DNA from: Dictyostelium discoideum
Lineage: Eukaryota
Assembly: GCA_000004695.1 (NCBI GenBank)
Contig: CM000151.3
Location: 2,400,001-2,464,000, forward strand
Length of the DNA stretch: 64,000 nucleotides
Reading direction: 5' to 3'
Position numbers and translations under genes: made by a program
Notes under the pieces: model-generated
The model's database searches: none
What the model was told of the DNA's origin: nothing
What the model saw: only the letters and a program-made list of their open reading frames with translations
Shown here: positions 265 to 52,082 of the stretch, one piece after another
How positions within the stretch are numbered: position 1 is the first letter of the stretch
How the letters are laid out: the number at the start of each line of letters is the position of its first letter

Positions 265-682
265 ATGATCAGAAAACGAATACTATTATTAATTCTAATA
301 ATAATAGTAATATTACAAATTTTTAGGGTTGAAGGAAATCCAGCAATTCAAATTTATGATGTTTCTAGTGAAGAATACTCATATAATAAATATCCAACAA
401 ATACAAATGACAAATATTGTAATTTTTTTTTCTTAATATTTGTAACCGATACTTCAGATACTGGAGTTCAATTAAAAATAAAAACCAACGATTCAGACGC
501 AACAATTTCAACACCAGCATTTAAAAATATTTCAAGTCAAGTTCTTCCAATTTATGTAAATACTAAATCACCAAATGATTATTCATTATTAATTACGGCA
601 GAATATGATAATGATACATCAATTTATAGTAGTATTATAATTAATTATTCTTGTCAATGTTTGTATTGATTATTTTTTTAAG

Positions 683-741
<59 letters not shown>

Positions 742-3700
742 AAATAAATAATTAATTAAATAATTAAATAAATTAAATAGATATTCCACGAGAATCAATG
801 AAAATAAATTTATATCATACTGGTAAATATAAGCATCCAATTTACCCATTTTCAACAATAATGTACATTACAGGATTAAAATACCCATTGGGTCAATTAC
901 AAGTTGACAAACCGTATAATGTAAAAGTTGATAATATAAGGCCATTTGTCTATCATATTGGTGACGAATTTAATGGATTTATTAAACCAGATTTTAATAT
1001 ATCACTATGGTTCATGGATAGTTCAAATAATACTTATTCATTAAATTATACAATTCCAAGTTTAATTTATTCAAGTAAGTAATTATTGTTATTATTATTA
1101 TTGTTTTTATTATTATTATTATTTTAAAAATTAATATATTAAATTATAATTTTAAAAATTCAGATTCAAATGTAAAAGAAAAGGATATTACATTTAAAAT
1201 TTATCCTAATCAAACAAATGTTATAGAATTTGGATTTATTTGTCCACCAATTTATTCTATTACATTAAATGAAACAATTGGATTAAGCGACCCATTGTTT
1301 ATTAATGAAAATATAGGTTTAAATCCATGGGCATCTTATGAAATGCCAGGAAAAGGTACAACATTCCTTGGTCAAGTTTCTTCCGATTATTCAATTGGTG
1401 CTCAAATTAATGGCACCTTAACTACAATTTATTATCAATTTTTAAAGGTCTCATGTAAGTTTATTATTATTATTATTATTTTTTTTTATTATTGTTTATT
1501 TTTATTATTTTAAAAAATCATTTTTGTTAATAATTTTAATAATATTATTATTATTGTTTTTTAAATATATAGATAATATTGATAGAAAATTTCCATCTTT
1601 TCAAATTGATTATTCACCACCATTACCTTCACTTTCATCAATATTTTCAATTAAATTTAATTCAACTAAAAAATTTGATTTATTCAATTATTCAATTAGA
1701 TGGTTTGAAAGTTTTTCAAATAGTTATAAATGGCCTTTTGGTTTCGAAAGTGGTCATAATTCAAATTATTCATTCAAGTCATCATTTCTACAATCTGAAA
1801 TCTCTGTAAATCCCTACAACTCACTTTATTTCAATCAAGATCATTCTTTAACGCAAATTAGTAATCAACAAGGTAATTGTTTTTTTTTATTTTTTATTAT
1901 TATTTAATAAAATTATTATATTAATTAAAATAATTTTATTATAAATAATAGTTGTGGATATAAATACATTACCAATATTAGAATTAGAATCATTTAATTC
2001 TACTCATTTATATAATCAAGTTTATTTATTTAAGATTAAAATAAAACCAATTTATCAAAGTAAAGGGTACAGTACTTTTATTAAAATTAATGATAATGTT
2101 AATCAAGTATTAAGATATGACTCAATGCCTGATATCGAAAACAATATATATGAAACTGTTTTAAATTTTCATGAAGGTATATTAAATAGTTTAAATATTG
2201 GTGATTCTTATTCAAGACAATCTCAATTTTATAATCCATTTCAATATTATTCAATTGATCCACTTTTAAAACTTGATTTTAAATATTCTGATATGATTTC
2301 AGTTTTAATTGGTAATGTAACTTATTTAATAAATAACATTGATGTAACAAATAAATCAGTTGATAATATAATTTATTTCAATTATAATGGTACTCAAGAA
2401 CCTAAAGATGATACAATTAATTTCTCATTTTTAATTTTATCTCATGAGTTTAAAGTAACTGGAGTCGTAGATTATGATAATATTACAACTTCAATTTGGA
2501 ATTCAACAATTTCAAAATATCAAATTAAATTTACAGTTCCTGCAAATACTAGACCTGGTCCACTTGGTTTTGCTTTACTTTGTGGTTATTCAAGTTCATT
2601 AATAAGTGATTTCTTACCTTTATCTTCTCAATTAATTATTGAATCTAAACATTTCGATGAATATGGACCAATATTTAGTAATATTGAAAAAGTTAATTCA
2701 ACAAATGAATTTGGTTGGAAATTTACAATAGATGATCCAATTAATGGTTTTGATTATGCTGATATTATAGTTAGAGGTGAAATGGATAGTTCAACTTATA
2801 AATTCCATTTAACAACTCAAAATTTAACAAGAGGTGATAAATTTAATGGTGATTATCAAATTAATATAACTTTACCAAGTAAATGTGCATCTCAAAATTA
2901 TATTATCACACAAGTTAAATTATATGATACTCAAGGTTATTTAGGTGAATTTTCAGTATCCAGTGGATTTAATGGTATTAGAAATGTATTTATAAATTAT
3001 TTATCAGATCCAACAATAAATAAAGTATATAAAACATGTAGTGGTGAAAATGATGGTATCGATAGTTCACCACCAATTTTAACTTCATTCATACCAATAT
3101 TAAAACAAAATAGTGATGGTACTCAATACTTATCATTCAACTTTGAAGCAGTAGATATTGAAAGTGGTTTAAAAGATAAACAATATCCAATTGTTTATAT
3201 CCAAACAACAGATTTAAGAACACTTGAATGTGTATCATCTATTATTTCAATAAATGAAACAACTTCAACCTATAAATGCACTATCAATTTACCAAATGGA
3301 TTCGGATACAATTCAGATATTATTTTCAGTGTTTATGGATTCATTAATAATGGCGGTTATTATAGCGGATATTCAAGCGAATCACTAAATAGTTTATCTT
3401 TTATATATTCAATGAGCGATATATCCATAAACAAAGTAATACAAATTAATACCTGTAGCAAATTTGTATCTGGTGATAGCGAGTTATGGATAACAGGTAG
3501 AGGTTTCAATTCAACAAAACAACAAGTATATGTAAAATATTTTGGAGAACCTGGATTTAATCAAATAATAGTACCAAATAAAGTTTATTGGAGTGCAATG
3601 TTTATTAAAAATATTAAACCAACTGATAAACCATTCATTATCAAAGTTTCGGACTATCCACTCACATCAAATGAATTCACTGTTATTCCTATAGTTTATA

Positions 3701-4860
3701 ATTTTACGATTCCCTTAACACCAACAGAAACACCAACAGAAACACCAACAGAAACACCAACAGAGACACCAACACAAACACCAATACCTACATCATCACC
3801 AATACCAACGAATAAACCACAAACATGTTTAGGTGAACCAGTATGTGGTGGATCAAAACAAGGTTTTTGTTCATCAAGTGGATGTATTTGTTATCCACCT
3901 TGGATTGGTAATGATTGTAATTCACAAGTTATAATTATACCACAACCATCAACAAATACATCACAACCATCAACTGAATTACCAATTATAGAAAACAATA
4001 ATCAAACATCAAATAGTACAAATTATTTATTCAAATCATTGATTTCAATTGTATCATTAAGAGAATTAGATTTTAATTCAAATCAAGTTAATTTATATAC
4101 ATTTGATAAATGGATTTATACACCAATTAATAATATTAAAAGTCAATACTTTACAAGTATTCAAAGTGGTGATACAAAATCAACAAATACATTAACAACT
4201 AATATTACTGTAACTTTAGAATGGTTCAATCAAACGACAATCATTCAATTTGCAAATAATAATATAACAATGAATCCATCAAGTATTAAATATACAATTG
4301 AAATTACAGAATATAAATTTTTAAATCAATTAAATAGTCTTCAACTTGTAATGTCAGCATTATTCGAATCATCAAATTCCAAAGATACTTGTTCATTAAA
4401 AGAATTTGGAGATACAAGTGATGGTGATAATTCAAACTTCTTTAAAATTCAAATTGATGACCATTCACTTTATGGTAGATTCATTAAAAGAGCAATCATC
4501 GATTCAAAAGTATCTTCAATTGAAAATCAATTATTAGATTCAAAAATGAACTCAATTCAAACATCATCAGTATCACAATCATTCATTGGTATTACAATAC
4601 CAAATTATAAACAATCAATAATTATTGATCCAGACTTTTCAGTATTAGTAGATAGTAAACCAGTATCAAATAATGATAATAATTCAATTTGTACATCAAA
4701 TAAATCAAAACTAACAAGTGCTCAACTCGCTGGTATTATTATTGGTTCCGTTGCTTTTGCCACTGTAGTTATTGTATCAGTTGTTTACTTGGTCGTGAAA
4801 AACAGAAAATCAGATTTATTCCAAAGAAAAGTACAAAACAAATTACAAAAAATGAACTGA
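265..4860 (+). CDS. Tandem paralog 1 of a large type-I membrane glycoprotein family (signal peptide, NxS/T-rich ectodomain, Thr/Pro linker, EGF-like Cys module, single TM helix, short basic tail); 5 exons, ~1396 aa
   Basis: ORF-track pieces 265-669, 798-1082, 1295-1513, 1524-1907, 1954-4860 join through short AT-rich GT..AG introns. Exons are ~265-658, 781-1074, 1164-1454, 1573-1872, 1952-4860, and every junction is phase 1. Donors are gtttgt/gtaagt/gtaatt; acceptors are atag/cag/tatag. N-term MIRKRILLLILIIIVIL is a signal-like peptide. The C-term is AGIIIGSVAFATVVIVSVVYLVV followed by KNRKS. The Cys module CLGEPVCGGSKQGFCSSSGCICYPPWIGNDC is EGF-like. The junctions fit the same model in copies 2 and 3. 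Confidence 0.6.
3718..3777 (+). repeat. Coding 12-bp tandem repeat (acaccaacagaa x4, then variants) giving PTETPTETPTETPTETPTQTP in the mucin-like linker; copies 2 and 3 have only DPTPTQTP here
   Basis: The unit repeats directly in the sequence. It encodes the TETP x4 segment of ORF 1954-4860. The corresponding linker in ORFs 10638-13313 and 16065-18740 is shorter. Confidence 0.8.
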
Positions 4861-5346
4861 TCAGTTAATTTAATTCAAATATTCTAATTAAAAATCTTGG
4901 AAAATAAAAATTATTATTTTTTTTATTAATTTTTAAAAATTTCTTTATGCATTTACTTATTATTTATTTGTCTTTTCTTATGTATATGTAAAAAAAAAAA
5001 TTTCTACTGTAGTGGTTCAACAAAAAAAAAATTAAAAACAAATTAATTAGGTTTACCCACACATTTATTATTTATTTGAAATTATTAAAATTTTTCCAAT
5101 ATTTAAAAATGATGATGTTTAAATTTTTTTATTTTTATTGTTGTTGAAGTGTTAATAAATATTAAACCATTCCTAATGTCATAGTGTATAGATAGATTTA
5201 TATTCTCTCCAATCTTTGGCACAGGATCGTTTGGTAGGTTTATCAGGTTTAATAGTTTTAACAGTTCAACATGTTTAACAGACTGGAAATAAAAAATCTT
5301 CCAATTGAAATTTATTTATTTTATTTTATTTTATTTTATTTTGTTT

Positions 5347-7040
5347 TTATTCATTAAGTTTCATTTCATATAATTTAGCAATATCATCTTCATAATCAGA
5401 AGCTTTTTCAGCAGATTTTTCACAATTAACTTCATTTACATCTTCACCCTTTGAATTTTTAGGTTCAATTTGTTGAACCACTTGAGTCAACTCATCAAAT
5501 TCATCGCTGATTGTTGAGTAACCTTCAACAAATTCTCGTTCACAAGAATTGGAATCATCGAGTAAATTATCAAAGAATTGACCATCGATAAAAGTGTTGA
5601 AAAGTTTTAAACAGTTTGTTTCTTTGGTATGTTTTTTGACAATATTTAATATTTTGGCAATGCCCTCCAAATAGTAATAAAAAGAATTTTTTCGAGCTTT
5701 AGATGCTGAATAATTCTGTTTCAAACATTCAAGACAATCGTTCTGTATTAAGTAAGGCAATTGCAGAGTTGAGAGTATAATTGATTTAATGTCAACTAGT
5801 AATGATGTTGATCTTTTAGAACAAAACATTTGGACATTAGGTAATATCACTGGTGATTCATTCCAAAATAGAGATAGTGTACTCAATTAAGGTATAGTAT
5901 TACATTTGATAGAAATATTGAAAACTCATTCAAAGAAATCACTAGTTTCAAATGTAGCTTGGGTCATTAAAAATCTATGTCGTGGTGTACCACGTACTGA
6001 ATTTAGACTCGTTAAGCCACTATTACCATCAATAAAGAGTTGCTCTTAACTTGGCATAAAGAAGCTGATGTCATATCAGAAGCATTGTGGGCATTATCAT
6101 GCTTGACCGAATCAACCAATGAAGAGCATGAGATCTTTGACAATATTATATCTATGGGATTGGTTGAGGTTATCATTGAAATCATTTTCGAATCAGATCA
6201 AAAAGATTGTATTAAATACGGATTCAATACAATTGGTAATATGCTTTCAGGTTTCTATGACGTTATAGAGTATTTGTTACAATGTAATGTATTGAAAGTG
6301 TTTCCTAAAATCTTATCATCACCATCAGAAGCATTGGTGACGTGAGGTTATTATTTTTTATTATATATTACCAATGGTCCAACAGATCAAGTCCAAAGAG
6401 TCATAGACGAATGTTTGCTTAAAAGAGCTATTGAAACCGGTAAAAACTCATCGATCAATTTAAGAACAAAACTTGAAGCCACCTGCGCTATTGCTAAGGC
6501 TATCTGTGGTGCCTCAACTCTGCAATTGCCTTACTTAATACAGAATTATGAATTTCATTCCCTACAATATAATTTGTATGTTTTGAAGATCCTGATGCAA
6601 CATTTGTTAATGCCCATGATGCTTCGTATTGAATTGAAGTATCTGTTTCATCAACTAAATATCTATGTAAAATTAGTACTAACCCTGAACTAATAACTCT
6701 ATCAATTTGTGGATTATTATCTTTTTTTTATAATAAATAATAAAAAAAAAAAAAAAAAAGTCATTTAAAAAAAAAAAGTCAATTTAAAAAAAAAAAAGTC
6801 AATTAAAAAAAAAAAAAAATAAAAATAAAAAACTTACCATCAGATAAAATTTCTCTAACACATTTAACTGCTTCATATCTTTCTTGTCTATTTGGTGATG
6901 AAATATTTTTAAAAATTAAATAAAATTTATCATTTTGAGTATATATATATAATTAATAAAAATTAATTATTTAAACAAATTGAAAAAATAAAAAAATAAA
7001 AAAAACTTACTAAGGTATTTTGATGTAATGATTCATCGAT
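5347..7040. pseudogene. Importin-alpha (karyopherin-alpha, ARM-repeat) like gene remnant with a rearranged order and internal stops
   Basis: + strand 5790-6350 encodes ARM-repeat motifs: ...IWTLGNITGDSFQNRD (ARM2-like), VSNVAWVIKNLCRG (ARM3-like), EALWALSCLTESTNEEHEIF...IGNMLSG (ARM4-6-like, ORF 6040-6345), with stops and frame changes. - strand 6720-6560 encodes IQYEASWALTNVASGSS (ARM1-like). - strand 6900-6840 encodes NISSPNRQERYEAVKCVREILSDG (IBB-proximal). - strand ORF 5886-5347 encodes a C-terminal-like tail. The ARM1 part is inverted relative to ARM2-6. Confidence 0.45.
5741..6553. repeat. 33-bp perfect inverted repeat (ctcaactctgcaattgccttacttaatacagaa) at 5741-5773 (reverse complement) and 6521-6553 (direct), bracketing the inverted ARM2-6 segment
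   Basis: Direct comparison of the two loci. Both arms translate to STLQLPYLIQN, in - ORF 5347-5886 and in + ORF 6415-6693. Confidence 0.7.
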
Positions 7041-7149
7041 ATGGTGTATGTGTCAAAATATTTTTAAAATTATGGATTTAAAAAAAAAAAAAAAAAAAAT
7101 TATTTGAAAATATTTTTTTTTTTTTTTAAATATTAAATTTTTTATTTTT

Positions 7150-7495
7150 AAATCTTAATAGGAGTTGATAATATAATTTATTTCAATTATAATGATACTC
7201 AGGCCACAGTGATCTTCAGCTACATTCTCACTTTTTATTTTAAATAGTAGTAATACAGATATGATCTAATATATATTTCAATAGTTTCAAAAAATCAAAT
7301 TAAATTTACAGTTCTTACAAATACTAGACCTGATCCACTCAGTTTCTTTTTAATTAGTACTTATCAATCTTCAATAACAAATGATATGTTTCCTTTATCA
7401 TCACAACTATTAATTGTTTCTAAACATTTCAATGAATATGGACCAATATTGACTATGGCGGTTATTATAGCGGATATTCAAGCGAATCACTTATA
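7150..7495 (+). pseudogene. Relic fragment of the membrane-glycoprotein family with an internal ~0.7 kb deletion and stops
   Basis: 7150-7440 matches copy-2 exon 5 around 10875-11190 (SVDNIIYFNYN.TQ...KFTVL.NTRP.PLSFFL...DMFPLSSQL..VSKHF.EYGPI). It then jumps directly to ggcggttattatagcggatattcaagcgaatcact (GGYYSGYSSESL), which is copy-2 ~11860. It has no start codon and does contain in-frame stops. Confidence 0.55.
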
Positions 7496-7977
7496 AAGGA
7501 AATTCCTTTATATAACAAAGGAAAATAATAATGAAAAAAAAGATATTAATATTTAAAATTAATTTAATATTTTTTATCATTTTTATTATAATATCAACAA
7601 ATAATTTTATTTTATTATTCTCTGTGTATTGGTGATTTTTTTTTTTTTTTTTTTTTTTTATAAATTAAAATTCATTGTTCCATAATTTAAATTAAATAAA
7701 GAAATTTATTGTGCATTTTAAAATTAAAATAAATAAACATATTTATTATTTTTTATTGTTTATTGTTTATTGTTTATTACTTTAAAATTAAAATTCTTTA
7801 TTTGATAATATAAATATAACTACTTTACATTTAAATAAACCTATTGATTGATTTTTGTTTAATCCTTTAAATTAAAACTCTTTATTTGGTAATTTAATTA
7901 AAAATGAATAACTGCTTTATATTTTTTTATATTATATTATTTTTTTTTTTAAATTTTTTTATTTTTTTTCTTTGTTT

Positions 7978-8011
<34 letters not shown>

Positions 8012-8276
8012 TTTTTTAAAAAATATATTTTACTAAAATTTTTCAAAATTAATTATTAAAAAAAGGCACAATAGAAAATTCAATAACCAAAATTTTTTTT
8101 TTTGATTTTTTTTATTATATTTTTTTATTTTTTTATTTGGCTAAATTATTACTAAACAAAAAATGGTATACATTTGTAGAGGTTGTAATCAACCTAAAAA
8201 AGAACAATGTCAATGCAAACAACTACTAGCAACATTAGGAACACAACAAAAACTAATACAAGCACAACAACAACTA

Positions 8277-8390
8277 ATACAACAACAAAATCCAAACACA
8301 AATCATATTATGCCAAGTCTTCAATCTGATGAATTCACAACTAATACAACAAAATCCAAACACAAGTCATATTATGCCAAGTCTTCAAGC
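8277..8390 (+). repeat. ~48-bp direct repeat x2 (aatacaacaacaaaatccaaacacaa(a/g)tcatattatgccaagtcttcaa) separated by 18 bp
   Basis: Seen directly in the sequence. It lies inside the low-complexity ORF 8163-8393, which has no other gene support. Confidence 0.5.
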
Positions 8391-8532
8391 TAATGGATTT
8401 ATAACAACTAAACAAGGTATTTTGGACTAAATAAACAAAATCTTCAACAAATAAAACATAAATGATTTTATTCCAGATCCAACTCTACCAAACAAATTTT
8501 ATGTTAGTATTAGAAATTAAATAAATTAAACA

Positions 8533-8580
<48 letters not shown>

Positions 8581-8697
8581 GTACCATTTATAATGTGTTT
8601 GTTGGGATCAAAAAAAAGAAATAAAAAATAAAAACAATGAAATTTTGTTGTGAGGTAGTCTTGAAATTCAAAAAATATTTTTTTTAATTTTTTTTTT

Positions 8698-8757
8698 AAA
8701 ATATCTTTTTATAAATATCTTTTTATAAATATCTTTATCAAATCGTAAAAAAAAAAA
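8698..8757 (+). promoter_or_regulatory. Conserved upstream element: (AAATATCTTTTT)x3 followed by CAAATCGTAAAAAAAAAA, ~55 bp upstream of the copy-2 ATG
   Basis: A nearly identical element at 14044-14100 precedes the copy-3 ATG, with x2 of the first box. A related aaaatatctattttt box at 20581-20595 precedes copy 4. aaaatatctttgg sits in the palindrome loop upstream of copy 5. Confidence 0.4.
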
Positions 8758-8809
8758 TGGGGAACGTTTTTTTTTTTTTTTTTTTTATTTTTTTTTTTAA
8801 AAAAAAAAA

Positions 8810-11800
8810 ATGATAAAGAAAATTTTATTAATAATCCTAACATTGGTGATAATAAATAGCTTTTCAACAATAAATAATTTAATAATTGGGGTTGAAGGAC
8901 AGTTTCAATTGTATGATATTACAAATCAAGAAGAAGGTGCTTATAATAGATACCCAGATTCAACAAATCAAAAAATTTGTTCATATGTTTTTTCGATTGC
9001 AATAGTTGATTACTCGAATAGTGGGGCAACTTTGAATGTTTTCACCAATGATACAGATGCAATGGTCTATCAAATCATTAGGAAAGAATATGGAGGAATT
9101 GCCACAGTTATAGTTAAAAATAAAACACCAAATACTTATACATTATTAATAAATGCAACATTGCAAAATGGTCAAAATATTTATAAGAATATCTCAATAA
9201 CTTATTCTTGTGAATGTTTGTATATAAAATTTAAAATTAAAAAAACAAAAATAAATAATTAATTAATTTCAATACCAATTTTATATAGATATCCCTCGAG
9301 AATTGATGAAGGTCAATGTTTTAACAAGTAACAATTATAAATTTACAATTAATCCTTATACAACATTAATACACTTTACAGGTTTAAAATATCAAATATC
9401 TTATCTAAATGTTTCAAGTCCTTCTTGGATAAACATAAATAATTTTTATTCAAATTTATTATATGTTAGTGTAGATTTTAATAAATATAATTTTGTACCA
9501 GAGTCTAATATATCAATACTTTTCTTGGATAGTTCAGATCAACAATATACTGTGAATATTACAATTCCTTTTTTTTATTTTTCAAGTAAGTATAATAATT
9601 AAATTTAAAAAAAAAAAAATAAGATATTAAAATTATTATTATTATAAGAAATGAATGTAGAAGAAAAGGATATTACATTCAAGATCTATCCAAACCAAAC
9701 CGATGTTACAGTACTTGGAGTTAATTGTTCACCAGTTTACTCTATTACATTAAATGAAACCATTGAATATGATCCATTATTTATTGAAGATGTTTCACGT
9801 CGTATGCCTACTCCATCATATGAAATACCAGGAAAAGGTACAACATTCATTGGTTATGTTTATACACAATATTCTATTTTCGCACAAATTAATAACTCAT
9901 TAACAACAATTTATAGTAACCCAAATTTAAATGTTTCAAGTAAGTTTTTTAAAATTAAATTCAATTACTTTTTAATATATACATATATCAAAGATTAATT
10001 TCTATTGACATTATTTAAAAAAAAATGAATAGAAAACTTTAATTTTACATTTCCAAATGTCATTGTTGAACCAGTATCATTACCTTTAATATTAAACTCA
10101 ACAATGTTTTCATTTGGGTTCACTTCAAGTTTTCAGTATGCAATTTTTCCATTTTATTTTAGATGGAATTTAGGTTTTCAATATATCTTTAGTTGGCCAT
10201 TTGGGTTTGAAAGTGGTCAAAATTCAAACTATTCTTTAAAAGTATCATTTTTAAAACCCACGTATTCGCCAAACAATTTTGGTTTATTGACCTTTAATAA
10301 TGAAAATTTTATTATTCAAATAGACAATAGTAAGTATATATACATATAATCATTAATATTCTAATATACATATATAATCATTAATATTCTAAACTACTAC
10401 TGAATAACACACACACACACCCCACACACAAACAAGTACTAACATTAAAAAATATTTTTAAAAATAGCGATAAATTCATCATTACTACCATTAGAATTAG
10501 AATCATGTAAAGTTATATACCTTTTTGAACAATTTCATTTATTAATAATTAAAATAAAACCAACATATAAAGAGATTGGTTATAATCTTTTCATTCAAAT
10601 TAATGATGATGCAAATGCAATATATAGACAAGAATCATTGGTAGATGCTGAAAATAATATATATGAAATTGTTTATGATTTTAAAGGGCGTGGATTTTCA
10701 GTTTTATCTATTGGAGATTCAACTTTTAAAAAGAGTCAAGTTTATTATGTAAATAGTTATTTTTCAATTAATCCATTTTCAGTTATAGATTATAAAGCTC
10801 CAACAATATTACCTGTTTTAATAGAAAATATTACATTTTTAAAAAATTATATTGATGTGGCAAATAAATCAGTTGATAATATAATTTATTTCAATTATAA
10901 TGGTACTCAAGCCCATAGTGATCCTTCAGCTTCATTCTCACTTTTTATTTTAAATAGTAATACCACAGAATCTAATATAGTTTTCGATAGTTTAAAGTTT
11001 GCAACTTGGAATTCAACAATTTCAAAATATCAAATTAAATTTACAGTTCTTGCAAACACTAGACCTGGTCCACTCAGTTTCTTTTTAATGTGTGGTTATC
11101 AATCTTCAATAACAAATGATATGTTTCCTTTATCATCACAACTATTTATTGTTTCTAAACATTTCGATGCGTATGGACCAATATTTAGTAATATTGAAAA
11201 AATTAATTCACCAAATGAATTTGGTTGGAAATTTACAATAGATGATCCAATTAATGGTTTTGATTATGGTGATATTATAGTGAGAGGTGAAATGGATAGT
11301 TCAACTTATAAATTCCATTTAACAACTCAAAATTTAACAAGAGGTGATAAATTTAATGGTGATTATCAAATTAATATAACTTTACCAAGTAAATGTGCAT
11401 CTCAAAATTATATTATCACACAAGTTAAATTATATGATACTCAAGGCTTTTCAGGTGAATTTTATGTAGTTGGTGAAATGGATGGTATTAAAAATGTATT
11501 TATAAATTATTTATCAGATCCAACAATAAATAAAGTATATAAAACATGTAGTGGTGAAAATGATGGTATCGATAGTTCACCACCAATTTTAACTTCATTC
11601 ATACCAATATTAAAACAAAATAGTGATGGTACTCAATACTTATCATTCAACTTTGAAGCAGTAGATATTGAAAGTGGTTTAAAAGATAAACAATATCCAG
11701 TTGTTTATATTGAAACAATAGAAGTACAAACACTTGAATGTGTATCATCTATTATTTCAATAAACGAAACAGCTGCAACCTATACATGTACTATCGATTT

Positions 11801-13313
11801 ACCAATAGGATTTGGATACAATTCAGATATTATTTTCAGTGTTTATGGATTCATTAATAATGGCGGTTATTATAGCGGATATTCAAGCGAATCACTAAAT
11901 AATTTATCTTTTATATATACAATTAATAATATAACTTTTAATAAAGTAATACAAATCACAAAATGCAGTAAATTTAATTCATTTGATAGCGAGTTATGGA
12001 TAACAGGTAGATGTTTCAATTCAACGCAACAAGTATATGTAAAATATGAAGGAGACTCAAGCTTTAATCAAATAGTACCAACTACAGTTTATTGGAGTGC
12101 AATTTTTATTAAAAATATTAAACCAACCGATAAACCATTCATTATCAAAGTTTCAGACCTACCACTCACATCAAATGAATTCACTGTCAATCCAATAGTT
12201 TATAATTTTATAGATCCAACACCAACACAAACACCAATACCTACATCATCACCAATGCCAACGAATAAACCACAAACATGTTTAGGTGAACCAGTATGTG
12301 GTGGATCAAAACAAGGTTTTTGTTCATCAAGTGGATGTATTTGTTATCCACCTTGGATTGGTAATGATTGTAATTCACAAGTTATAATTATACCACAACC
12401 ATCAACAAATACATCACAACCATCAACTGAATTACCAATTATCGATAACAATAATCAAACATCAAATAGTACAAATTATTTATTCAAATCATTGATTTCA
12501 ATTGTATCATTAAGAGAATTAGATTTTAATTCAAATCAAGTTAATTTATATACATTTGATAAATGGATTTATACACCAATTAATAATATTAAAAGTCAAT
12601 ACTTTACAAGTATTCAAAGTGGTGATACAAAATCAACAAATACATTAACAACCAATATTACTGTAACTTTAGAATGGTTCAATCAAACGACAATTATTCA
12701 ATTCGCAAATAATAATATAACAATGAATCCATCAAGTATTAAATATACAATTGAAATTACAGAATATAAATTTTTAAAACAATTAAATAGTCTTCAACTT
12801 GTAATGTCAGCATTATTCGAATCATCAACTTCCAAAGATACTTGTTCATTAAAAGTATTTGGAGATACAAGCGATGGTGATAATTCAAACTTCTTTAAAA
12901 TTCAAATTGATGATCATTCACTTTATGGTAGATTCATTAAAAGAGCAATCATCGATTCAAAAGTGTCTTCAATTGAAAATCAATTATTAGATTCAAAAAT
13001 GAACTCAATTCAAACATCATCAGTATCACAATCATTCATTGGTATTACAATACCAAACTATAAACAATCAATAATTATTGATCCAGACTTTTCAGTATTA
13101 GTAGATAGTAAACCAGTATCAAATAATGATAATAATTCAATTTGTACATCAAATAAATCAAAACTAACAAGTGCTCAACTCGCTGGTATTATTATTGGTT
13201 CTATTGCTTTTGCCACTGTAGTTATTGTATCAGTTGTTTACTTGGTTGTGAAAAACAGAAAATCAAAAAAATTCCAAAGAAAAGTACAAAAGAAATTACA
13301 AACAATTAACTGA
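8810..13313 (+). CDS. Tandem paralog 2 of the type-I membrane glycoprotein family; 5 exons, ~1378 aa
   Basis: Exons ~8810-9215, 9289-9585, 9649-9939, 10033-10329, 10468-13313, all phase-1 junctions (gtttgt/gtaagt donors, atag/taag/aatag acceptors). Exon lengths are 406, 297, 291, 297 and 2846 nt, giving an unbroken frame. ORF track: 8810-9262, 9303-9602, 9651-9998, 10104-10349, 10638-13313. Signal MIKKILLIILTLVIINS. TM AGIIIGSIAFATVVIVSVVYLVV. Confidence 0.65.
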
Positions 13314-14015
13314 TAATTACTTAATCAGTTAATTTAATTCTAATATTTAAATTATAAATCTTGGAAAAAAAATAAAAATAAAAAATAAAAAATAAAAGAT
13401 AAAAACAAATAAAAACAGGACTTTTAATTCGAAAAAAAAAGTATATATAAAAAAAATTTTAATTTTTTTTTTTTTATTATTTTTTAAATTAATCTTTAAA
13501 AAAAAAAAAAAAAGACAAAATCACCATTAATTATATAATCAATTAGCTTGAGATAGAACAAAAAAATGGATCAAGATTAGTAGAAAGAAAAAGCAATTGA
13601 TTTCATCAACAACACCAAAAAACCAATTATTTGGTAAAAAGAAAAAAAAAAACCAAAAAAAAAATAAAAAACAAGTAAAATGAACCAATCATTTAGATGA
13701 ATGTTGTTTTTTTAAAAATAACAATAATAATAAAAGATAAAATAATAAGGGGAGTTACACAGAAAATAAAAAAAATAAAAGTAAAAAAAAAAAATAAAAA
13801 AAAAGAGGAACACTTTAATGCAAAAATTTTTACAACCGCCTTATAAAATATATATAAAAAACAATCATCAATATTTTGTTTTTTTTTTTTTTTTTTTAAC
13901 AAAACGACACCAATTTGTTTGGTAATAAAAGCGAAAAGAAATTTTGTGTCTTTTTTTTTTTTTTTTTTTCTGTTTGCCCCTTAGAATTTCAAAATTTTTT
14001 TTTTGTTTTTTATTT

Positions 14016-14100: not shown

Positions 14101-14214
14101 AAAAGCAAAAATAAAAAAAAATGTTTGCTAAAGGGCAAGTTTTTTTTTTTTTTTTTTGTTGTTTTAATAAAAAAAAAAAAACTTATTGCAAGTTTAAATA
14201 AACAAAAAAAAAAA

Positions 14215-14635
14215 ATGATAAAGAAAATTTTATTGATAATCCTAACATTGGCGATAATAAATAGCTTTTCAACAATAAATAATTTAATAATTGGGGTTGA
14301 AGGACAGTTTCAATTGTATGATATTACAAATCAAGAAGAAGGTGCTTATAATAGATACCCAGATTCAACAAATCAAAAAATTTGTTCATATGTTTTTTCG
14401 ATTGCAATAGTTGATTACTCGAATAGTGGAACAAATTTGATGGTTTTCACCAATGACACAGATGCAACAGTCTCTCTAATCAATAAGAAAGAATATGGAG
14501 GAATTGCCACAGTTATAGTTAAAAATAAAACACCAAATACTTATACATTATTAATAAATGCAACATTGCAAAATGATCAAATTATTTATAAAAATATCTC
14601 AATAACTTATTCTTGTGAATGTTTGTATATAAAAC

Positions 14636-14680
<45 letters not shown>

Positions 14681-15037
14681 AAAAAAAAAAAAAAAATAAT
14701 TAACTTTAATATCAATTTTATAGATATCCCTCGAGAATTGATGAAGGTCAATGTTTTAACAAGTAACAATTATAAATTTACACTTTTTCCTTATACAGCA
14801 ACAATACACTTTGCAGGTTTAAAATATCCACTAAATTTGCTAAATGTTTCAAGTCCTTCAAATGTTGCAATGAGCTTAGAGGGATATTCAAATTTATTCT
14901 TTGTTGGTGTAGGATTTGATAAAAATAATTTAATATCAGAGTTTAATATATCAATAAGATTCTTGGATAGTTCAGATCAACAATATACTGTAAATATTAC
15001 AATTCCTTTTTTATATTTTTCAAGTAAGTATAATAAT

Positions 15038-15068
<31 letters not shown>

Positions 15069-18000
15069 GATATTAAAATTATTATTATTTTAAGAAATGA
15101 ATGTAGAAGAAAAGGATATTACATTTAAGATCTACCCAAACCAAACTGATGTTAAAGAATTTGGAATTAATTGTTCACCAGTTTACTCTATTACATTAAA
15201 TGAAACCATTGAATATGATCCATTATTTATTGAAGATATTACAAATAATATTCCAACTCCATCATATGAAATACCAGGAAAAGGTACAACATTCATTGGC
15301 CAAGTTCATACACAATATTCTATTTTCGCAAAAATTAATAACTCATTAACAACAATTTATAGTGATCCAAATTTAAATGTTTTTAGTAAGTTTGTTAAAA
15401 TTAAATTTAATTACTTTTTAATATATACATATATCAAAGATTAATTTCTATTGACATTATTTTAATTTTTTTTTTTAAAAAAATGAATAGATAATTTTAA
15501 TTTTACATTTCCAAATGTCATTGTTGAACCAATATCAGTACCTTTAACATTAAACTCAACAATGTTTTCATTTGGATTCAATTCAAATACCCAGTATGAA
15601 ACATTTTCATTTTATTTTAGATGGAATTTAGGTTTTCAATATATCTTTAGTTGGCCATTTGGGTTTGAAAGTGGTCAAAATTCAAACTATTCTTTAAAAG
15701 CATCATTTTTAAAACCCACATATTCGCCAAACAATTTTGGTTTATTGACCTTTAATAATCGAAATTTAAATATTCAAATAGACAATAGTAAGTATATACA
15801 CATATAAAATCATTAATATTCTAAACTACTACCGAACAACACACACACACTCAAAACAATTACTAACATTAAAAAATATTTTTAAATATAGCAATAAATT
15901 CATCATTACTACCATTAGAATTAGAATCATGTAAAGTTATATACCTTTTTGAACAATTTCATTTATTAAGAATTAAAATAAAACCAACATATAAAGAGAT
16001 TGGTTATAATCTTTTCATTCAAATTAATGATGATGATGCAAATGGAATATATAGACAAGAATCATTGGTAGATGCTGAAAATAATATATATGAAATTGTT
16101 TATGATTTTAAAGGGCGTGGTTTTCAATTTTTATCTATTGGAGATTCAACTTTTAAAAAGAGTCAAGTTTATTATTTAAATAGTTATTTTTCAATTAATC
16201 CATTTTCAGTTATAGATTATAAAGCTCCAACAATATTACCTGTTTTAATAGAAAATATTACATTTTTAAAAAATTATATTGATGTGGCAAATAAATCAGT
16301 TGATAATATAATTTATTTCAATTATAATGGTACTCAAACCCATAGTAATCCTTCAGCTTCATTCTCACTTTTTATTTTAAATAGTAATACCACAGATTCT
16401 AATATAGATTTCAATAGTTTAAAGTTTGCAACTTGGAATTCAACAATTTCAAAATATCAAATTAAATTTACAGTTCTTGCAAACACTAGACCTGGTCCAC
16501 TCAGTTTCTTTTTATGGTGTGGTTTTCGAGCAATAACAAATGATATGTTTCCTTTATCATCACAACTAATAGTTGTTTCTAAACATTTCGATGAATATGG
16601 ACCAATATTTAGTAATATTGAAAAGGTTAATTCAACAAATGAATTTGGTTGGAAATTTACAATAGATGATCCAATTAATGGTTTTGATTATGGTGATATT
16701 ATAGTGAGAGGTGAAATGGATAGTTCAACTTATAAATTCCATTTAACAACTCAAAATTTAACAAGAGGTGATAAATTTAATGGTGATTATCAAATTAATA
16801 TAACTTTACCAAGTAAATGCGCATCTCAAAATTATATTATCACACAAGTTAAATTATATGATACTCAAGGTTATTCAGGTGAATTTTCAGTAGTTAATGG
16901 AATAGATGGTATTAAAAATGTATTTATAAATTATTTATCAGATCCAACAATAAATAAAGTATATAAAACATGTAGTGGTGAAAATGATGGTATCGATAGT
17001 TCACCACCAATTTTAACTTCATTCATACCAATATTAAGACAAAATAGTGATGGTACTCAATATTTATTATTCAACTTTGAAGCAGTAGATATTGAAAGTG
17101 GTTTAAAAGATAAACAATATCCAATTGTTTACATTCAAACAATAGAAGCACAAACACTTGAATGTGTATCATCTATTATTTCAATAAACGAAACAGCTGC
17201 AACCTATACATGTACCATCAATTTACCAATAGGATTTGGATACAATTCAGATATTATTTTCAGTGTTTATGGATTCATTAATAATGGCGGTTATTATAGC
17301 GGATATTCAAGCGAATCACTAAATAATTTATCTTTTATATATACAATTAATAATATAGCTTTTAATAAAGTAATACAAATCACAAAATGCAGTAAATTTA
17401 ATTCATTTGATAGCGAGTTATGGATAACAGGTAGATGTTTCAATTCAACGCAACAAGTATATGTAAAATATGAAGGAGACTCAAGCTTTAATCAAATAAT
17501 AGTACCAACTACAGTTTATTGGAGTGCAATGTTTATTAAAAATATTAAACCAACTGATAAACCATTCATTATCAAAGTTTCAGACCTACCACTCACATCA
17601 AATGAATTCACTGTCAATCCAATAGTTTATAATTTTATAGATCCAACACCAACACAAACACCAATACCTACATCATCACCAATACCAACGAATAAACCAC
17701 AAACATGTTTAGGTGAACCAGTATGTGGTGGATCAAAACAAGGTTTTTGTTCGCCAAGTGGATGTATTTGTTATCCACCTTGGATTGGTAATGATTGTAA
17801 TTCACAAGTTATAATTATACCACAACCATCAACAAATACATCACAGCCATCAACTGAATTACCAATTATCGATAACAATAATCAAACATCAAATAGTACA
17901 AATTATTTATTCAAATCATTGATTTCAATTGTATCATTAAGAGAATTAGATTTTAATTCGAATCAAGTTAATTTATATACATTTGATAAATGGATTTATA

Positions 18001-18740
18001 CACCAATTAATAATATTAAAAGTCAATACTTTACAAGTATCCAAAGTGGTGATACAAAATCAACAAATCCATTAATAACTAATATTACTGTAACTTTAGA
18101 ATGGTTCAATCAAACAAAAATCATTCAATTCGCAAATAATAATATAACAATGAATCCATCAAGTATTAAATATACAATTGAAATTACAGAATATAAATTT
18201 TTAAATCAATTAAATAGTCTTCAACTTGTAATGTCAGCATTATTCGAATCATCAACTTCCAAAGATACTTGTTCATTAAAAGAATTTGGAGATACAAGCG
18301 ATGGTGATAATTCAAACTTCTTTAAAATTCAAATTGATGACCATTCACTTTATGGTAGATTCATTAAAAGAGCAATCATCGATTCAAAAGTATCTTCAAT
18401 TGAAAATCAATTATTAGATTCAAAAATGAACTCAGTTCAAACATCATCAGTATCACAATCATTCATTGGTATTACAATACCAAACTATAAACAATCAATA
18501 ATTATTGATCCAGACTTTTCAGTATTAGTAGATAGTAAACCAGTATCAAATAATGATAATAATTCAATTTGTACATCAAATAAATCAAAACTAACAAGTG
18601 CTCAACTCGCTGGTATTATTATTGGTTCCGTTGCTTTTGCCACTGTAGTTATTGTATCAGTTGTTTACTTGGTTGTGAAAAACAAAAAATCGGTTTTGTT
18701 CCAAAGAAAAGTACAAAACAAATTACAAAAAATGAACTGA
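14215..18740 (+). CDS. Tandem paralog 3 of the type-I membrane glycoprotein family; 5 exons, ~1379 aa; near-identical to paralog 2
   Basis: Exons ~14215-14620, 14724-15023, 15095-15385, 15491-15787, 15892-18740, all phase 1. The real ATG is at 14215 (MIKKILLIILTLAIINS); ORF 14125 begins upstream in poly-K/F. ORF track: 14738-15040, 15097-15444, 15562-15807, 16065-18740. Confidence 0.65.
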
Positions 18741-18827
18741 TCGGCTTAATAAATAATTGATTTCGTCCCAACTTTTTAATAAAAAAAAAAAATTAGTTAA
18801 TAATCCTAAAATTCTCTTTTTATAATA

Positions 18828-18893
<66 letters not shown>

Positions 18894-19090
18894 TATAAGA
18901 TGAAAAAAATTAAAATAAAATTAAAATAAAAAGAAATAAATAGGACAACAAAAACAATTTTCTAACTATGGCTTGGGTATATACTAATATTTGGTAATTA
19001 AAATTTATTTTTATTTTTATAAACATTTTCTAAGGAATTAATAGATAGTATCATCATATTTAATTAAAATTTGAATTATTATTTTCAAAT

Positions 19091-20796: not shown

Positions 20797-23296
20797 ATGA
20801 ATAAAAATTTTGTTTTGTATTTATTTTATTTTATTTTTTTAAATTATTGTAATAGTCAATCATTGAACATAACAGATATTTCAGAAGCAAATTCGTATAT
20901 AGTATATCCTGATTCATCAAATTCACAAACTTGTTCTTTTAATTTTAAATTTTTTATCCAAACTGTTAATATAATAAATTATTCTGGAAGTTCATTTTCA
21001 TTTTTATTATCTAAATCTTTTGTTTTGGATACATCATCATTTATAACTAAAGATGGTCATGCATATGCATCTTTTAATGGTTTAAATTTGCCATTAGGAA
21101 ATGATAGTCTAATATTAACATCAACTTATGAAAATTCAGATGGTATTAAAATTCAACAAAATTATTCAATATCTTATAAATGTGAATGTTTGTATTTGCC
21201 CCATTAAATTAATTAATTTAATATTTTAAAAAATTATTTAAATTGCTAATTTTTTTTTTTAAAAGTAATTGAATTTAATTCTTTGGGTTATAAGGTTTTA
21301 TTAACAAATAATTTTAAAAAATCTAAATCAGGAATGAATGGAATTATTCAATTTACAGGATTAAAAAATAAACTAAAATCATTAAGTTCGAGTGGGGGAA
21401 TTTTCAATGTCAAACCAACATTTCCAAATAGTTTTTCATTTTCTGATTATCAATTTCAAAATTTAACAAAAGAAAATATAATTTCACTTTTATTTAATAA
21501 TGGTAATAATATTACAGTAAAATTTCCATCATCATTTAGTTCATGTAGGTATTTTTTTTTTATTTTTTTTTGAACTTGCACTTTTCATTTTTTTTTTTTA
21601 TTTTTTTATTTTTTTTTATTTAAAAATTTCAAAAAATAATTAATCCTCGTTTAATTTTATTATTTTTTAGATTATAATGTTGATGAAAGCAATTCAAAAG
21701 TTGTAATTTATCCAAGTGAAAGCACAAATATAATTGAATATGGATATGACAATTCTCCACTTTATTCAGTTACAATAAATAAAACCAGTGTTGATTATGA
21801 ACCTTATATTCAAGTTAATAATGGGTTTAGCAACTATTCTCAAATAACACCAATATATCAAAATGACAAAACTGTAACATATTTAGGTCAACTTATTAAT
21901 TCAGCACCTTCAAAATTATCAATTTATTCAGAGTTTAATAATTCTTTAATAAAAATCTATGAAACACCAATTTTAAATATTACAAGTAAGTATTTTAAAA
22001 TATATCTTTATAAATGAATTTTAATAGTAATGATAATAATTTTTATTATTATAATTTTATTTAGAATTTAGTAAAGAACCTTTTGTTCCAAATCCATTTA
22101 TTGTTACATACTTTAATAGTGATGGTATTTTTTTATTAAATTCATCAATGTTTACAATTACCACATCAAATCAATTTAATTTCTTAACAACAACCTATTC
22201 ATTTGGTTTATTCACAAAAGATTTTCAATGGCCATTTGGTTTTGGAAGTGGTAATAATTTTAATTATAATGTATCCGCTTCATTTTTGAGATACAAGGCT
22301 CTCATTAGTTCACCAAAAGTTTTTACTGTTGATAAAACAAATCTAATCAACATTAATTCAAATATAAGTATGTATATAATTTATTATAAATAAATTTAAA
22401 ATAATAATTAATAATAATAATATTTAAATTTTTTAATATTAATATATATTTTTATTATATTATTATTATTATTATCATTAAAACATAAACTGTTTTTTTT
22501 TTAAAAAAAAAAAAAAAATTATAGTTGCACCAACTGTAAATGCACCAATTCTTTTAAAATTTGAATGGGTTCATTTATTTTCAGGAAATTATTTATTAAA
22601 ATTTAGGGTAAAAGATAATGGATATGAAGCATTTGTTGGTATTGGTGATGTCAATACAATTGCATTAAGATATGAATCAATGATAGATAGTGAAAGTATA
22701 GGTGATGAAATTGTATTTGCAGCAGTTATAGATACATACAGATATCCAATTGACAAATTTATTGTATTCGATAGATTGGGACAAACAGAAACATATTCAA
22801 TCGGTCAATATTATTCAGTTAATCCACTTTTAAAAATTGATTCATTTTATGAAAATAATAATAAAAATAATAATAATAATAATAACTTATTACTTATTAA
22901 TAATATTACATTTTTTAATAATTTTATCGATATAATAAATAAATCAGTTGATAATGTAGTTTATTTTACATATAATGGAGGTAGAATGGATAATGATGAA
23001 AAACCAATTGGATTTATGTTAATGGACGTAGTTACATTAGTAAAGAATAGTAAATACCATTTCAACAGTTCAACACTATACTTTTCAACTTGGAATTCAA
23101 CAATATCAATGTATCAAATTAAATTTAAAATACCTGCAAATACCCAACCTGGTCATATTCCATATAGATTCTTTATCAACTCTTATTCAACACCTTTAGA
23201 TAGTGAATTCTTACCATCATCTGCACAACTATATGTAACATTATCAAGTAAGTATCTATAATATAGGTATAAATACAATTTATCAATAGTTTTCAA

Positions 23297-23378
<82 letters not shown>

Positions 23379-25625
23379 GAATCTACAGATTTCGATGGAT
23401 ATGGACCAATATTTAGTAATATTGAAAAGGTTAATTCAACAAATGAATTTGGTTGGAAATTTACAATAGATGATCCAATTAATGGTTTTGATTATGCTGA
23501 TATTATAGTTAGAGGTGAAATGGATAGTTCAACTTATAAATTCCATTTAACAACTCAAAATTTAACAAGAGGTGATAAATTTAATGGTGATTATCAAATT
23601 AATATAACTTTACCAAGTAAATGTGCATCTCAAAATTATATTATCACACAAGTTAAATTATATGATACTCAAGGTATTGGTTGCTACTTTTCAGTATCTG
23701 AATCATTTGTAGGTGGTGGTGTTAATAACCCATTTATAAATTATTTATTAGACTCAACAATAAATAAATTATATAAAAAGTGTAGTGGTGAAAATGATGG
23801 TATCGATAGTTCACCACCAATTTTAACATTATTTACACCACAAGTAGCTATTCCTGCAGATGGACATATGGAAGTATATTTCTCATTTGAAGCAACTGAT
23901 TACGAAAGTGGATTAAAAGATCTTCAATATCCAATGGTTTACGTTGAAGCAATTGAATTTCAAATATTTGAATGTGAAACAATTATTAAATCAAAGAATA
24001 TCACCTCTGCAACCTATCAATGTTACGTTTACTTACCAAGAGGTGTATTGTACACTTCAGAAATTACATTCAGTGTTTATGGATTAATTAATAATGGTGG
24101 TTGTTATGGTGGTTATTCAAGCGACTCACTAAGAATTCTATTCCCGTATAAGTTTTCAATGAAAGCAGTATCATCAGGACTTGCTAAAAGGTTAGATATC
24201 TATAGAGTTTCTCAAATTACAACAAGTGGTGGCGAATTATGGATAATAGGTGCTGGTTTCTTTTCTTCAAATCTTGTAGTATTAATTAAATATTATGGTG
24301 AATCAACATTTACACAAACATCAATACCAACTATAAGTTATCCAAATGCAATGTTAATCAATGATGTCAAACCAACTGATAAACCATTCATTATCAAAGT
24401 ACAAGAAGCTTTCTTTTCAAATGAATTCACTGTTTATCCATTAGTATTTGATATTCGTTTTGTACCACCAATTCCAACAGAATTACCAACAGAATCCCCA
24501 ACACCAAATCCATCATCATCATCTTCTTCAATAGACTCGTCATCGTCAACACCTACATCATCACCAATACCAACGAATAAACCTCAAACATGTTTAGGTG
24601 AACCATTATGTGGTGGATCAAAACAAGGATATTGTTCATCAAGTGGATGTGTTTGTTATCCACCTTGGATTGGTAATGATTGTAATTCACAAGTTATAAT
24701 TATACCACAACCATCAACAAATACATCACAACCATCAACTGAATTACCAATTATCGATAACAATAATCAAACATCAAATAGTACAAATTATTTATTCAAA
24801 TCATTGATTTCAATTGTATCATTAAGAGAATTAGATTTTAATTCAAATTAAGTTAATTTATATACATTTGATAAATGGATTTATACACCAATTAATAATA
24901 TTAAAAGTCAATACTTTACAAGTATTCAAAGTGGTGATACAAAATCAACAAATACATTAACAACCAATATTACTGTAACTTTAGAATGGTTCAATCAAAC
25001 AACAATCATTCAATTTGCAAATAATAATATAACAATGAATCCATCAAGTATTAAATATACAATTGAAATTACAGAATATAAATTTTTAAATCAATTAAAT
25101 AGTCTTCAACTTGTAATGTCAGCATTATTCGAATCATCAACTTCCAAAGATACTTGTTCATTAAAAGTATTTGGAGATACAAGCGATGGTGATAATTCAA
25201 ACTTCTTTAAAATTCAAATTGATGATCATTCACTTTATGGTAGATTCATTAAAAGAGCAATCATCGATTCAAAAGTATCTTCAATTGAAAATCAATTATT
25301 AGATTCAAAAATGAACTCAATTCAAACATCATCAATATCACAATCATTCATTGGTATTACAATACCAAATTATAAACAATCAATAATTATTGATCCAGAC
25401 TTTTCAGTATTAGTAGATAGTAAACCAGTATCAAATAATGATAATAATTCAATTTGTACATCAAATAAATCAAAACTAACAAGTTCTCAACTCGCTGGTA
25501 TTATTATTGGTTCCGTTGCTTTTGCTGCTGTCGTTGTTGTTGCAGCTTCTTATTTTATTATAAAAAAGTGGAAAGACGATAAATTTGTAAAAACATTTAA
25601 TAGAAAATTAAAAAAACTATCATAA
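20797..25625 (+). pseudogene. Divergent paralog 4 of the membrane glycoprotein family; 6 exons, including an extra intron absent from copies 1-3; the open frame is interrupted by a single in-frame TAA at 24849-24851 upstream of the TM helix
   Basis: Exons ~20797-21187, 21266-21544, 21671-21985, 22065-22367, 22525-23247, 23389-25625. The junctions are phase 1 and the lengths fit a continuous frame. ORF track: 20797-21207, 21283-21573, 22148-22393, 22680-23261, 23520-24851, 25035-25625, with the last two in the same frame. aattcaaatTaagtt aligns to aattcaaatCaagtt (Q, NSNQVNLYTF) in copies 1-3. The tail is AGIIIGSVAFAAVVVVAASYFIIKKWKDDKF... Confidence 0.55.
23248..23388 (+). other. Paralog-specific intron (gtaagt...(att)n...tctacag) inside what is continuous exon 5 in copies 1-3
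   Basis: Copy 4 reads ...QLYVTLS | NFDGYGPIFSNIEKVNSTNEF. Copies 1-3 read ...QLIIESKHFDEYGPIFSNIEKVNSTNEF without a break. The donor is ttatcaa|gtaagt and the acceptor is tctacag|atttcgat. The intron contains an (ATT)~29 microsatellite at 23293-23378. Confidence 0.6.
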
Positions 25626-29906: not shown

Positions 29907-34759
<4,853 letters not shown>

Positions 34760-51185: not shown

Positions 51186-51218
<33 letters not shown>

Positions 51219-51320
51219 TTTAATTATTTAAAAAATATATTAAAAAATTTGTTATTTCTTTTTTGAGTCACAATGAATCCTTTTTTTTGTTTTTGAAGTT
51301 AAATAGTTTTTTTTTAAATT

Positions 51321-51366
<46 letters not shown>

Positions 51367-51401
51367 TATTATTATTATAATTATTTAAATAAATATAAAA
51401 A

Positions 51402-52046: not shown

Positions 52047-52082
<36 letters not shown>

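Follow-up and report, generated by a model that had tools for sequence, protein, structure and literature searches.

Analysis of the spacer between the first two genes of a ComC-like gene array in Dictyostelium discoideum AX4 revealed an exon-derived relic which is, judged from its sequence, an inert, same-strand pseudogene fragment of the local ComC-like surface-protein family. Its position in a nucleotide tree and its protein identities show descent from the copy-2/3 lineage of the same array, and the branching order dates its origin to the time after D. citrinum had split off, close to the base of the D. discoideum complex. The distribution of its private changes furthermore shows a fragment that evolved without the constraints of the family since its origin and has been dead for long. 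Duplicative pseudogene fragments in tandem families are of a well-known kind, and the relic is a previously unannotated example of it.

The ComC-like array and the structure of the relic

The window (the whole stretch of 64 kb that was analyzed, with a G+C content of 22%) belongs to a chromosome 2 region that is duplicated in AX4 and carries the paired identifiers DDB_G0272570/DDB_G0273939, plus DDB_G0272572 and DDB_G0272903. Five full-length members of the ComC-like family are found within its first 35 kb. The parent proteins share the domain order DUF8390-DUF7035-DUF7034-DUF7949/EGF-ComC_SSD followed by a transmembrane segment, of which the Pfam domains DUF7035 and DUF7034, the EGF-like DUF7949, the ComC supersandwich domain, and then the transmembrane segment are encoded by the large last exon. 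Relatives in the databases are labelled "EGF-like domain-containing protein" and occur across the group-4 dictyostelids; the family as a whole is large and dispersed, with 74 protein hits and members on several AX4 chromosomes. The features of the locus are, in window coordinates:

265-4860, + strand: copy 1, intact; a more distant paralogue of the relic (76% identity over R1)
5289-~7110, - strand: ARM pseudogene, a whole-gene, unprocessed copy with three exons, two introns, and short flanks
5772-6549, + strand: inverted central segment of the ARM pseudogene (0.78 kb), flipped in place
7163-7450, + strand: R1, exon 5 homology, from the variable region just upstream of DUF7035
7451-7454, no strand assigned: junction GACT, standing where intact copy 2 has 674 bp (11186-11859) and resembling neither side of that interval
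7455-7491, + strand: R2, inside DUF7034 (12 codons), encoding GGYYSGYSSESL
7492-7512, no strand assigned: perfect palindrome TATAAAGGAA-A-TTCCTTTATA with 10-bp arms, abutting the 3' breakpoint of the relic
8810-13313, + strand: copy 2, intact; the closest relative of the relic in the window, with the homologous intervals 10871-11185 and 11860-11896
14215-18740, + strand: copy 3, intact, of the copy-2 type
20797-25625, + strand: copy 4, full-length family member
~29961-34759, - strand: fifth copy, full-length family member

Copies 2 and 3 are 93% identical over exons and introns (8799-13314 versus 14204-18741). Their homology extends from 11 bp before the ATG to 1 bp beyond the stop codon, while the intergenic DNA is unalignable, and in the tree they group by haplotype, not by position. 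This pattern suggests either gene-bounded concerted evolution, i.e., gene conversion, or repeated independent duplication. In the intact genes, the part of exon 5 upstream of DUF7035 (10871-11185 and its homologues) shows substitutions spread evenly over the codon positions (14/14/12; 6/4/4), the 3' two-thirds of exon 5 are near-identical between paralogues, and copy 1 differs by ~5% between AX4 and the wild strain ACTFIW. Relaxed or diversifying selection may act on the N-terminal half of the ComC-like proteins. In copy 4, the large exon is broken into three ORFs (22680-23261, 23520-24851, and 25035-25625), and the gene is still annotated with 1378 aa in the AX2-like assembly; copy 4 therefore either contains additional introns or has been disrupted.

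Other relics and clusters were also recognized in the window. A second family relic (25776-26037, - strand) lies 150-410 bp downstream of copy 4 and in opposite orientation. Its first piece (26037-25867), which is 89.5% identical to copy 4 at 24270-24434, is joined directly to a second one (25865-25776) matching the last ~90 bp of the gene; between the pieces ~0.8-1.1 kb is missing, and one open frame runs to the homologous stop codon. Further downstream, three cytochrome-P450-like ORFs on the - strand (49296-50276, 52121-52627, and 54967-55635) share similar segments (DLLIKEYG...FLAG). They form another tandem cluster (49296-55635), with two of the ORFs apparently truncated, and may be multi-exon genes or further relics.

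The first-pass annotation had described the relic as a ~345-bp fragment (7150-7495) that reproduces two separated parts of exon 5. Self-BLAST and alignments confirmed both parts and narrowed the true limits to 7163-7491 (329 bp, + strand, between copies 1 and 2), with homology beginning abruptly at 7163 and ending at 7491. R1 matches copy 2 at 10871-11185 (E 1e-93 in the self-BLAST), copy 3 at 16298-16609, and copy 1 at 2358-2675. Its identity to copy 2 is 82.1% with gaps and 88.9% when only substitutions are counted; by the latter measure copy 3 reaches 87.0% and copy 1 76.0%. At the protein level, a tblastn comparison of the relic with the parent returned E 2e-25. R2 is identical at all 37 of its 37 positions to 11860-11896, 17284-17320, and 3350-3386 in copies 2, 3, and 1, respectively (E 1e-13). 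Translation recovers the motifs NYN(G>D)TQ...KHF(D>N)EYGP and GGYYSGYSSESL. The two parts are collinear, and their distance in intact copies, previously given as ~700 bp, measures 674 bp compared with 4 bp in the relic. In intact copies, the interval deleted from the relic is bordered by an imperfect direct repeat (TATGGA..ATT.A.TAAT), and the GACT in its place looks like filler.

The + orientation, the lack of a start codon, and the presence of stops, all reported before, were borne out as well. Within R1, single bases are missing after 7203 and after 7213, 25 bp are missing after 7264 (28 bp when compared with copy 1), and TGG>TAG creates a stop at 7273; the reading frame shifts again across the 674-bp junction. 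Both ends are truncated, no start codon occurs within the relic, and the longest ORF on either strand comprises 36 aa. No gene is called on the relic in the AX2-like annotation, and scans of the spacer for Rfam families and for tRNAs returned no match. The relic retains neither the ComC supersandwich nor the DUF7949 domain, and ~7% of the 4.5-kb unit survives. The palindrome at the 3' breakpoint occurs once in the 64-kb window, with 0.09 matches expected by chance. It may represent a snap-back repair footprint or a coincidence, and may or may not be part of the relic.

Descent and neutral evolution

The descent of the relic was analyzed in a neighbour-joining tree of R1 and 14 intact homologues from six haplotypes with 500 bootstraps. 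The relic fell among the copy-2/3 genes of the D. discoideum complex, branching at or close to the base of their clade, with copy 2 of D. citrinum outside the clade in essentially all of the 500 bootstraps. Nucleotide identities agree with this placement, amounting to 88.9-89.6% for copy-2-type genes, ~76% for copy-1 types, and 75% for D. citrinum copy 2. As a check on paralogues, the frame-corrected relic was compared by local BLASTP with 74 retrieved family proteins, a set that comprises annotated proteins and not whole genomes. Amino acid identity was 65-69% to copy-2/3-type orthologues, 57% to D. citrinum copy 2, 53-54% to copy-1 types, and at most 38% to every other, non-array paralogue among these 74. 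The first-pass annotation had named a better match to a dispersed copy elsewhere as the finding that would speak against a local origin; among the 74 annotated family proteins, none is closer than the array members.

Twenty substitutions are private to the relic, 16 of them nonsynonymous (one being the stop) and four synonymous, with 6/9/5 at the three codon positions. The codon-position test is non-discriminating here, as intact copies are likewise even across positions in this region. We therefore turned to an invariant-site test, in which the 162 sites unchanged in all 14 intact sequences were set against the variable sites. Twelve private changes of the relic fall on invariant sites compared with four novel states at variable sites, whereas the ratio of invariant to variable is 44:51 in the pooled functional copies (Fisher p 0.056) and 11:20 in D. 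citrinum copy 2 (p 0.015), with p 0.015-0.02 for the D. citrinum copies. Because the private changes ignore conserved sites, the relic has escaped constraint through essentially its whole private history; it either died early or was never functional.

The private divergence of R1 amounts to 7%, plus three indels. Given the rates of R1, the probability of an unchanged R2 is 0.046-0.068 (jointly ~0.05). Late death of a long-functional copy, which would explain the perfect R2, is disfavoured, since the private changes in R1 pay no regard to conserved sites.

Composition of the spacer and comparison across haplotypes

The start-to-start spacing of 8545 bp between copies 1 and 2, compared with 5405 bp between copies 2 and 3, had been read correctly (8.5 versus 5.4 kb) in the first-pass annotation and taken there as a sign of a lost array member. 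This argument fails, since a 1.82-kb pseudogene of an unlinked gene fills most of the excess, contributing 1.8 kb of the ~3 kb. From copy 1 to copy 2, the 3949 bp of the spacer comprise the copy-1 3' flank (428 bp), the ARM pseudogene (1822 bp), a stretch of 52 bp, the relic (329 bp), and 1318 bp upstream of copy 2, within which 7883-8809 is shared with the ACTFIR haplotype.

The parent of the ARM pseudogene encodes an ARM_ARMC5/importin-alpha-like protein of ~520 aa and is unlinked, lying on another contig in other strains. The copied stretch begins ~85 bp ahead of the parental ATG and extends 61 bp beyond the stop, and its retention of both introns identifies a DNA-level copy instead of a retrocopy. 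It has lost the ATG and acquired stops and a frameshift, and its 5' end lies ~50 bp from the relic. A 33-bp inverted duplication (5741-5773/6513-6545) marks one breakpoint of the inversion of its central part, which is derived in the AX4 lineage because the ACTFIY remnant is un-inverted across the breakpoint. On the ORF of the pseudogene, the AX2-like assembly calls a 158-aa gene (L001 1589-2145), probably spuriously. The copy is ~78-80% identical to its parent (~70% in the comparison by protein distances), and four-point distances let it branch near or before the D. citrinum split. As the relic dates from after this split, it arose beside a pre-existing pseudogene; these distances thus show an ARM pseudogene that is older than the relic and was already in place.

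A blastn and tblastn search of the spacer for other parts of a unit (promoter, exons 1-4, the 3' 1.4 kb of exon 5, and 3' flank) detected none at the DNA or protein level. The proposed search for exons 1-4 upstream of the relic hence came back empty, their place being occupied by the older ARM pseudogene. A match of the right flank of the relic (7500-7601) to the 3' flank of copy 3 (18809-18908) proved to be merely an (AAT)n/poly-T microsatellite. Insertion of the ARM gene into a former array member was likewise rejected, the ARM copy being older and the exon-5 pieces on either side non-collinear.

For comparison, we used the syntenic arrays of the wild D. discoideum strains ACTFIW and ACTFIR, the possible cryptic species ACTFIY and ACTFIZ, and D. 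citrinum. These five haplotypes are part of the PMC12745789 strain panel. A sixth assembly, 99.85% collinear with the window, carries the relic base for base; it is evidently AX2, so not independent. All five other haplotypes lack the relic in the copy 1-copy 2 spacer and have an intact copy 2, and in none of the compared haplotypes or species is an intact gene or a larger remnant found at its position. An empty-site allele was not found either, as no compared haplotype keeps the flanks 7111-7162 and 7492-7685. Spacer lengths between copies 1 and 2 are 1216 bp in ACTFIW, 2506 bp in ACTFIR, 733 bp in ACTFIY, 660 bp in ACTFIZ, and 450 bp in D. citrinum, and across the array spacers range from 297 to 3949 bp.

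Traces of the ARM copy are left in three of these haplotypes, namely a contiguous 318-bp piece in ACTFIY (parent positions 3246-3557), 50 bp of the 3' end in ACTFIW, and the 3' flank in ACTFIR. They indicate an ARM insertion ancestral to ACTFIY, ACTFIW, and ACTFIR, with the short spacers as deletion derivatives. The breakpoints differ: ACTFIW is without 5409-7685, ACTFIY is without 4910-6545 and ~6800-8609, and in ACTFIR 5336-7882 is replaced by other sequence. Since each of these deletions spans the relic site, the absence of the relic needs no extra event and is uninformative on its origin. An AX4-specific insertion, first suggested by presence/absence parsimony, was dropped for the reason that the ARM scraps reveal the others as deletion derivatives. 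We infer that the relic survives solely in the NC4/AX4/AX2 haplotype, the others having lost this part of the spacer by independent deletions.

Turnover by birth and death, as the first-pass annotation had proposed for the array, is clear independently of the relic, both from the second relic at 25776-26037 and from the number of copy-2-type genes, which is two in AX4 and ACTFIW and one in ACTFIR, ACTFIY, and D. citrinum. Several further rearrangements were noted around the array. In ACTFIR, the small Dicty_CAD gene that follows the copy-2/3 block occurs in duplicate; in ACTFIZ, copy 2 is followed by a DDE_Tnp_4 transposase gene and a gene of 571 aa; and ACTFIW carries window 8005-8222 inverted. 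The ACTFIW haplotype (L002) additionally contains, at 14786-14833, a 32-bp exon-5 scrap with 31 of 32 positions matching 11610-11641 and coding LKQNSDGTQYL. This scrap is preceded by the G-rich filler GGGGGTGGGAGTGTAC and replaces ~140 bp of AX4 spacer (5096-5237); it is situated left of the ARM remnant, and its source lies within the interval missing from the AX4 relic.

Origin of the relic and comparison with known systems

That a complete copy-2-type array member once stood at this site and was then reduced by deletions is a proposition we regard as evenly poised. A tandem duplication of a copy-2-type unit would have set an extra copy between the ARM pseudogene and copy 2, which would have been inactivated early and subsequently shortened by three or more large deletions of the end-joining type. 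At the 5' end, a loss of >2 kb would have taken away promoter and exons 1-4 together with the first 230 bp of exon 5, an internal deletion of 674 bp would have been sealed by the 4-nt filler between short direct repeats, and a 3' deletion would have taken ~1.4 kb; small deletions and the nonsense mutation would have been added afterwards, leaving no function now. As R1 is still ~89% identical to copy 2, the missing 93% was not lost by substitution and must have been deleted or never present. Of the earlier proposal that a further member had decayed here, the dead same-strand fragment of an array gene stands, and decay by substitution is impossible; a complete member is possible, with no trace of exons 1-4 and no intact orthologue. 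In favor of a once-complete copy, the relic keeps the array orientation, lies inside the array, and belongs to the copy-2/3 clade. Duplication of copy-2-type units recurs, with copy number varying between haplotypes, kb-scale deletions are frequent in the same spacer (the ARM pseudogene being cut differently in ACTFIW, ACTFIR, and ACTFIY), and copy 4 is neighbored by another exon-5 relic with an internal deletion. However, neither the promoter and exons 1-4 nor the last 1.4 kb of exon 5 and the 3' flank have left a remnant around the relic, and no compared haplotype or species has an intact gene or larger remnant at the site. The older ARM pseudogene kept ~95% of its length in AX4 whereas the younger relic lost ~93%, a weak argument (p ~0.16 from a rough count), and the known scraps (R1, R2, and the ACTFIW 32-mer) all come from one 1-kb stretch of exon 5. 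In addition, R2 is perfect over 37 bp despite the 7% divergence of R1 (joint P ~0.05), and filler and palindrome suit a templated repair patch.

The main alternative is a birth as a partial copy, which we consider possible, if on the doubtful side. One or two copy-2-type exon-5 pieces would have been copied into the spacer beside the ARM pseudogene, with no complete gene ever present, either during double-strand-break repair (template switching, or templated insertion of the polymerase-theta or MMBIR type) or by illegitimate partial duplication; the copying would have skipped 674 bp between short repeats, and the pieces would then have drifted neutrally. Nothing but exon-5 pieces is left of the 4.5-kb unit, R2 and the independent 32-bp scrap of ACTFIW have the size of templated inserts, the junction contains filler, a unique palindrome abuts the 3' breakpoint, and the second relic (25776-26037) has the same two-piece architecture. 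The neutral pattern along the whole private branch fits a piece that was dead on arrival, and with the ARM gene copy the spacer had gained ectopic DNA before. On the other hand, R1 with its 288 bp is long for a templated insert, and its 7% private divergence makes it an old piece, indistinguishable from a deletion remnant. No empty-site allele exists among the compared haplotypes, the microhomologies are AT-rich and of low significance, and orientation, in-array position, and recurrent unit duplication suit the in-situ reduction of a complete unit equally well. A wider version of the partial birth, by which the scraps at 7163-7491 and 25776-26037 and the ACTFIW 32-mer would all be repair footprints templated from neighbouring paralogues in AT-rich, unstable spacers, is rather unlikely in our estimation. 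If true, some "gene relics" of Dictyostelium tandem families would record break repair and not gene death.

Two other explanations fare much worse. An origin as a dispersed copy of a family member elsewhere, or as a processed retrocopy, is very improbable: the family is indeed large and dispersed (74 hits, several AX4 chromosomes), and the ARM pseudogene shows that ectopic insertion occurs here, but the adjacent copy-2/3 units and their orthologues match it best (65-69% aa identity, compared with at most 38% for non-array paralogues), and the nucleotide tree puts the relic inside the local copy-2/3 clade. A retrocopy is furthermore opposed by the lack of a poly(A) tract from 7492 on, of a target-site duplication, and of terminal repeats; intron loss is uninformative in this respect, the relic lying within a single exon. 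Capture by a transposon (Pack-MULE- or Helitron-like) was rejected as well, with no terminal repeats or target-site duplication and only A/T-run repeats around the relic; an 18-nt direct repeat bracketing it is ARM exon sequence and not a transposon signature. It is scarcely credible that the relic would be a functional element, be it by contributing an exon to an unannotated transcript, by regulating copy 2, or by giving rise to small or antisense RNA directed at the family. The perfect conservation of R2 and an AG before 7163 resembling a splice acceptor could be read in this sense, yet no ORF exceeds 36 aa on either strand, neither an AX2-like gene call nor an Rfam match falls on it, it is absent from five other haplotypes in which copy 2 is intact, and its substitution pattern is neutral.

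Taken alone, the relic is the expected leftover of a fast-duplicating family and leaves the knowledge of ComC-like genes unchanged. Its value is that of a dated marker in a spacer in which six haplotypes show the fast turnover of Dictyostelium intergenic DNA. Here the ectopic copy of a whole gene was inserted, underwent inversion, and was then deleted in a different way in each lineage, the homology of sister genes ends at start and stop codons, and short exon scraps are found at breakpoints. The 158-aa gene call on the ARM pseudogene in a recent assembly also advises caution in annotation.

Unprocessed pseudogene fragments are a regular component of tandem families evolving by birth and death according to the model of Nei and Rooney, such as the olfactory-receptor, MHC, and immunoglobulin V arrays. 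The ComC-like locus shares with these a same-strand, truncated in-array copy whose nearest relatives are the adjacent units, frameshifts and a nonsense mutation, neutral drift, and copy-number variation between haplotypes. It differs in that 7% of the unit is left, with no other part of the unit and no intact orthologue, so that the death of a full member would have to be inferred. Templated insertions, or filler DNA, at end-joining junctions are known from polymerase-theta-mediated end joining and MMBIR. The locus resembles them in short patches from nearby paralogous sequence (37 bp, and 32 bp in ACTFIW), non-templated filler, imperfect microhomology, and a palindrome at the breakpoint; in contrast to such insertions, R1 is 288 bp long and old, and there is no empty site or donor junction.

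Within the same organism and strain panel, the tgr family of AX4 comprises 26 pseudogenes beside 38 genes (PMC12745789). Both the tgr and the ComC-like family are large and duplicate fast, encode single-pass surface proteins, and leave behind many truncated copies. The array described here, which is not treated in PMC12745789, encodes ComC-like proteins with DUF7035/DUF7034/ComC_SSD and not TIG-repeat proteins, and its locus is the chromosome 2 duplication region. ComC itself, Dictyostelium communication mutant C, is an EGF-domain, secreted/transmembrane protein (PMC4931340, Table 3). The intact parent genes share with it the ComC supersandwich and the EGF-like DUF7949, of which the relic keeps neither.
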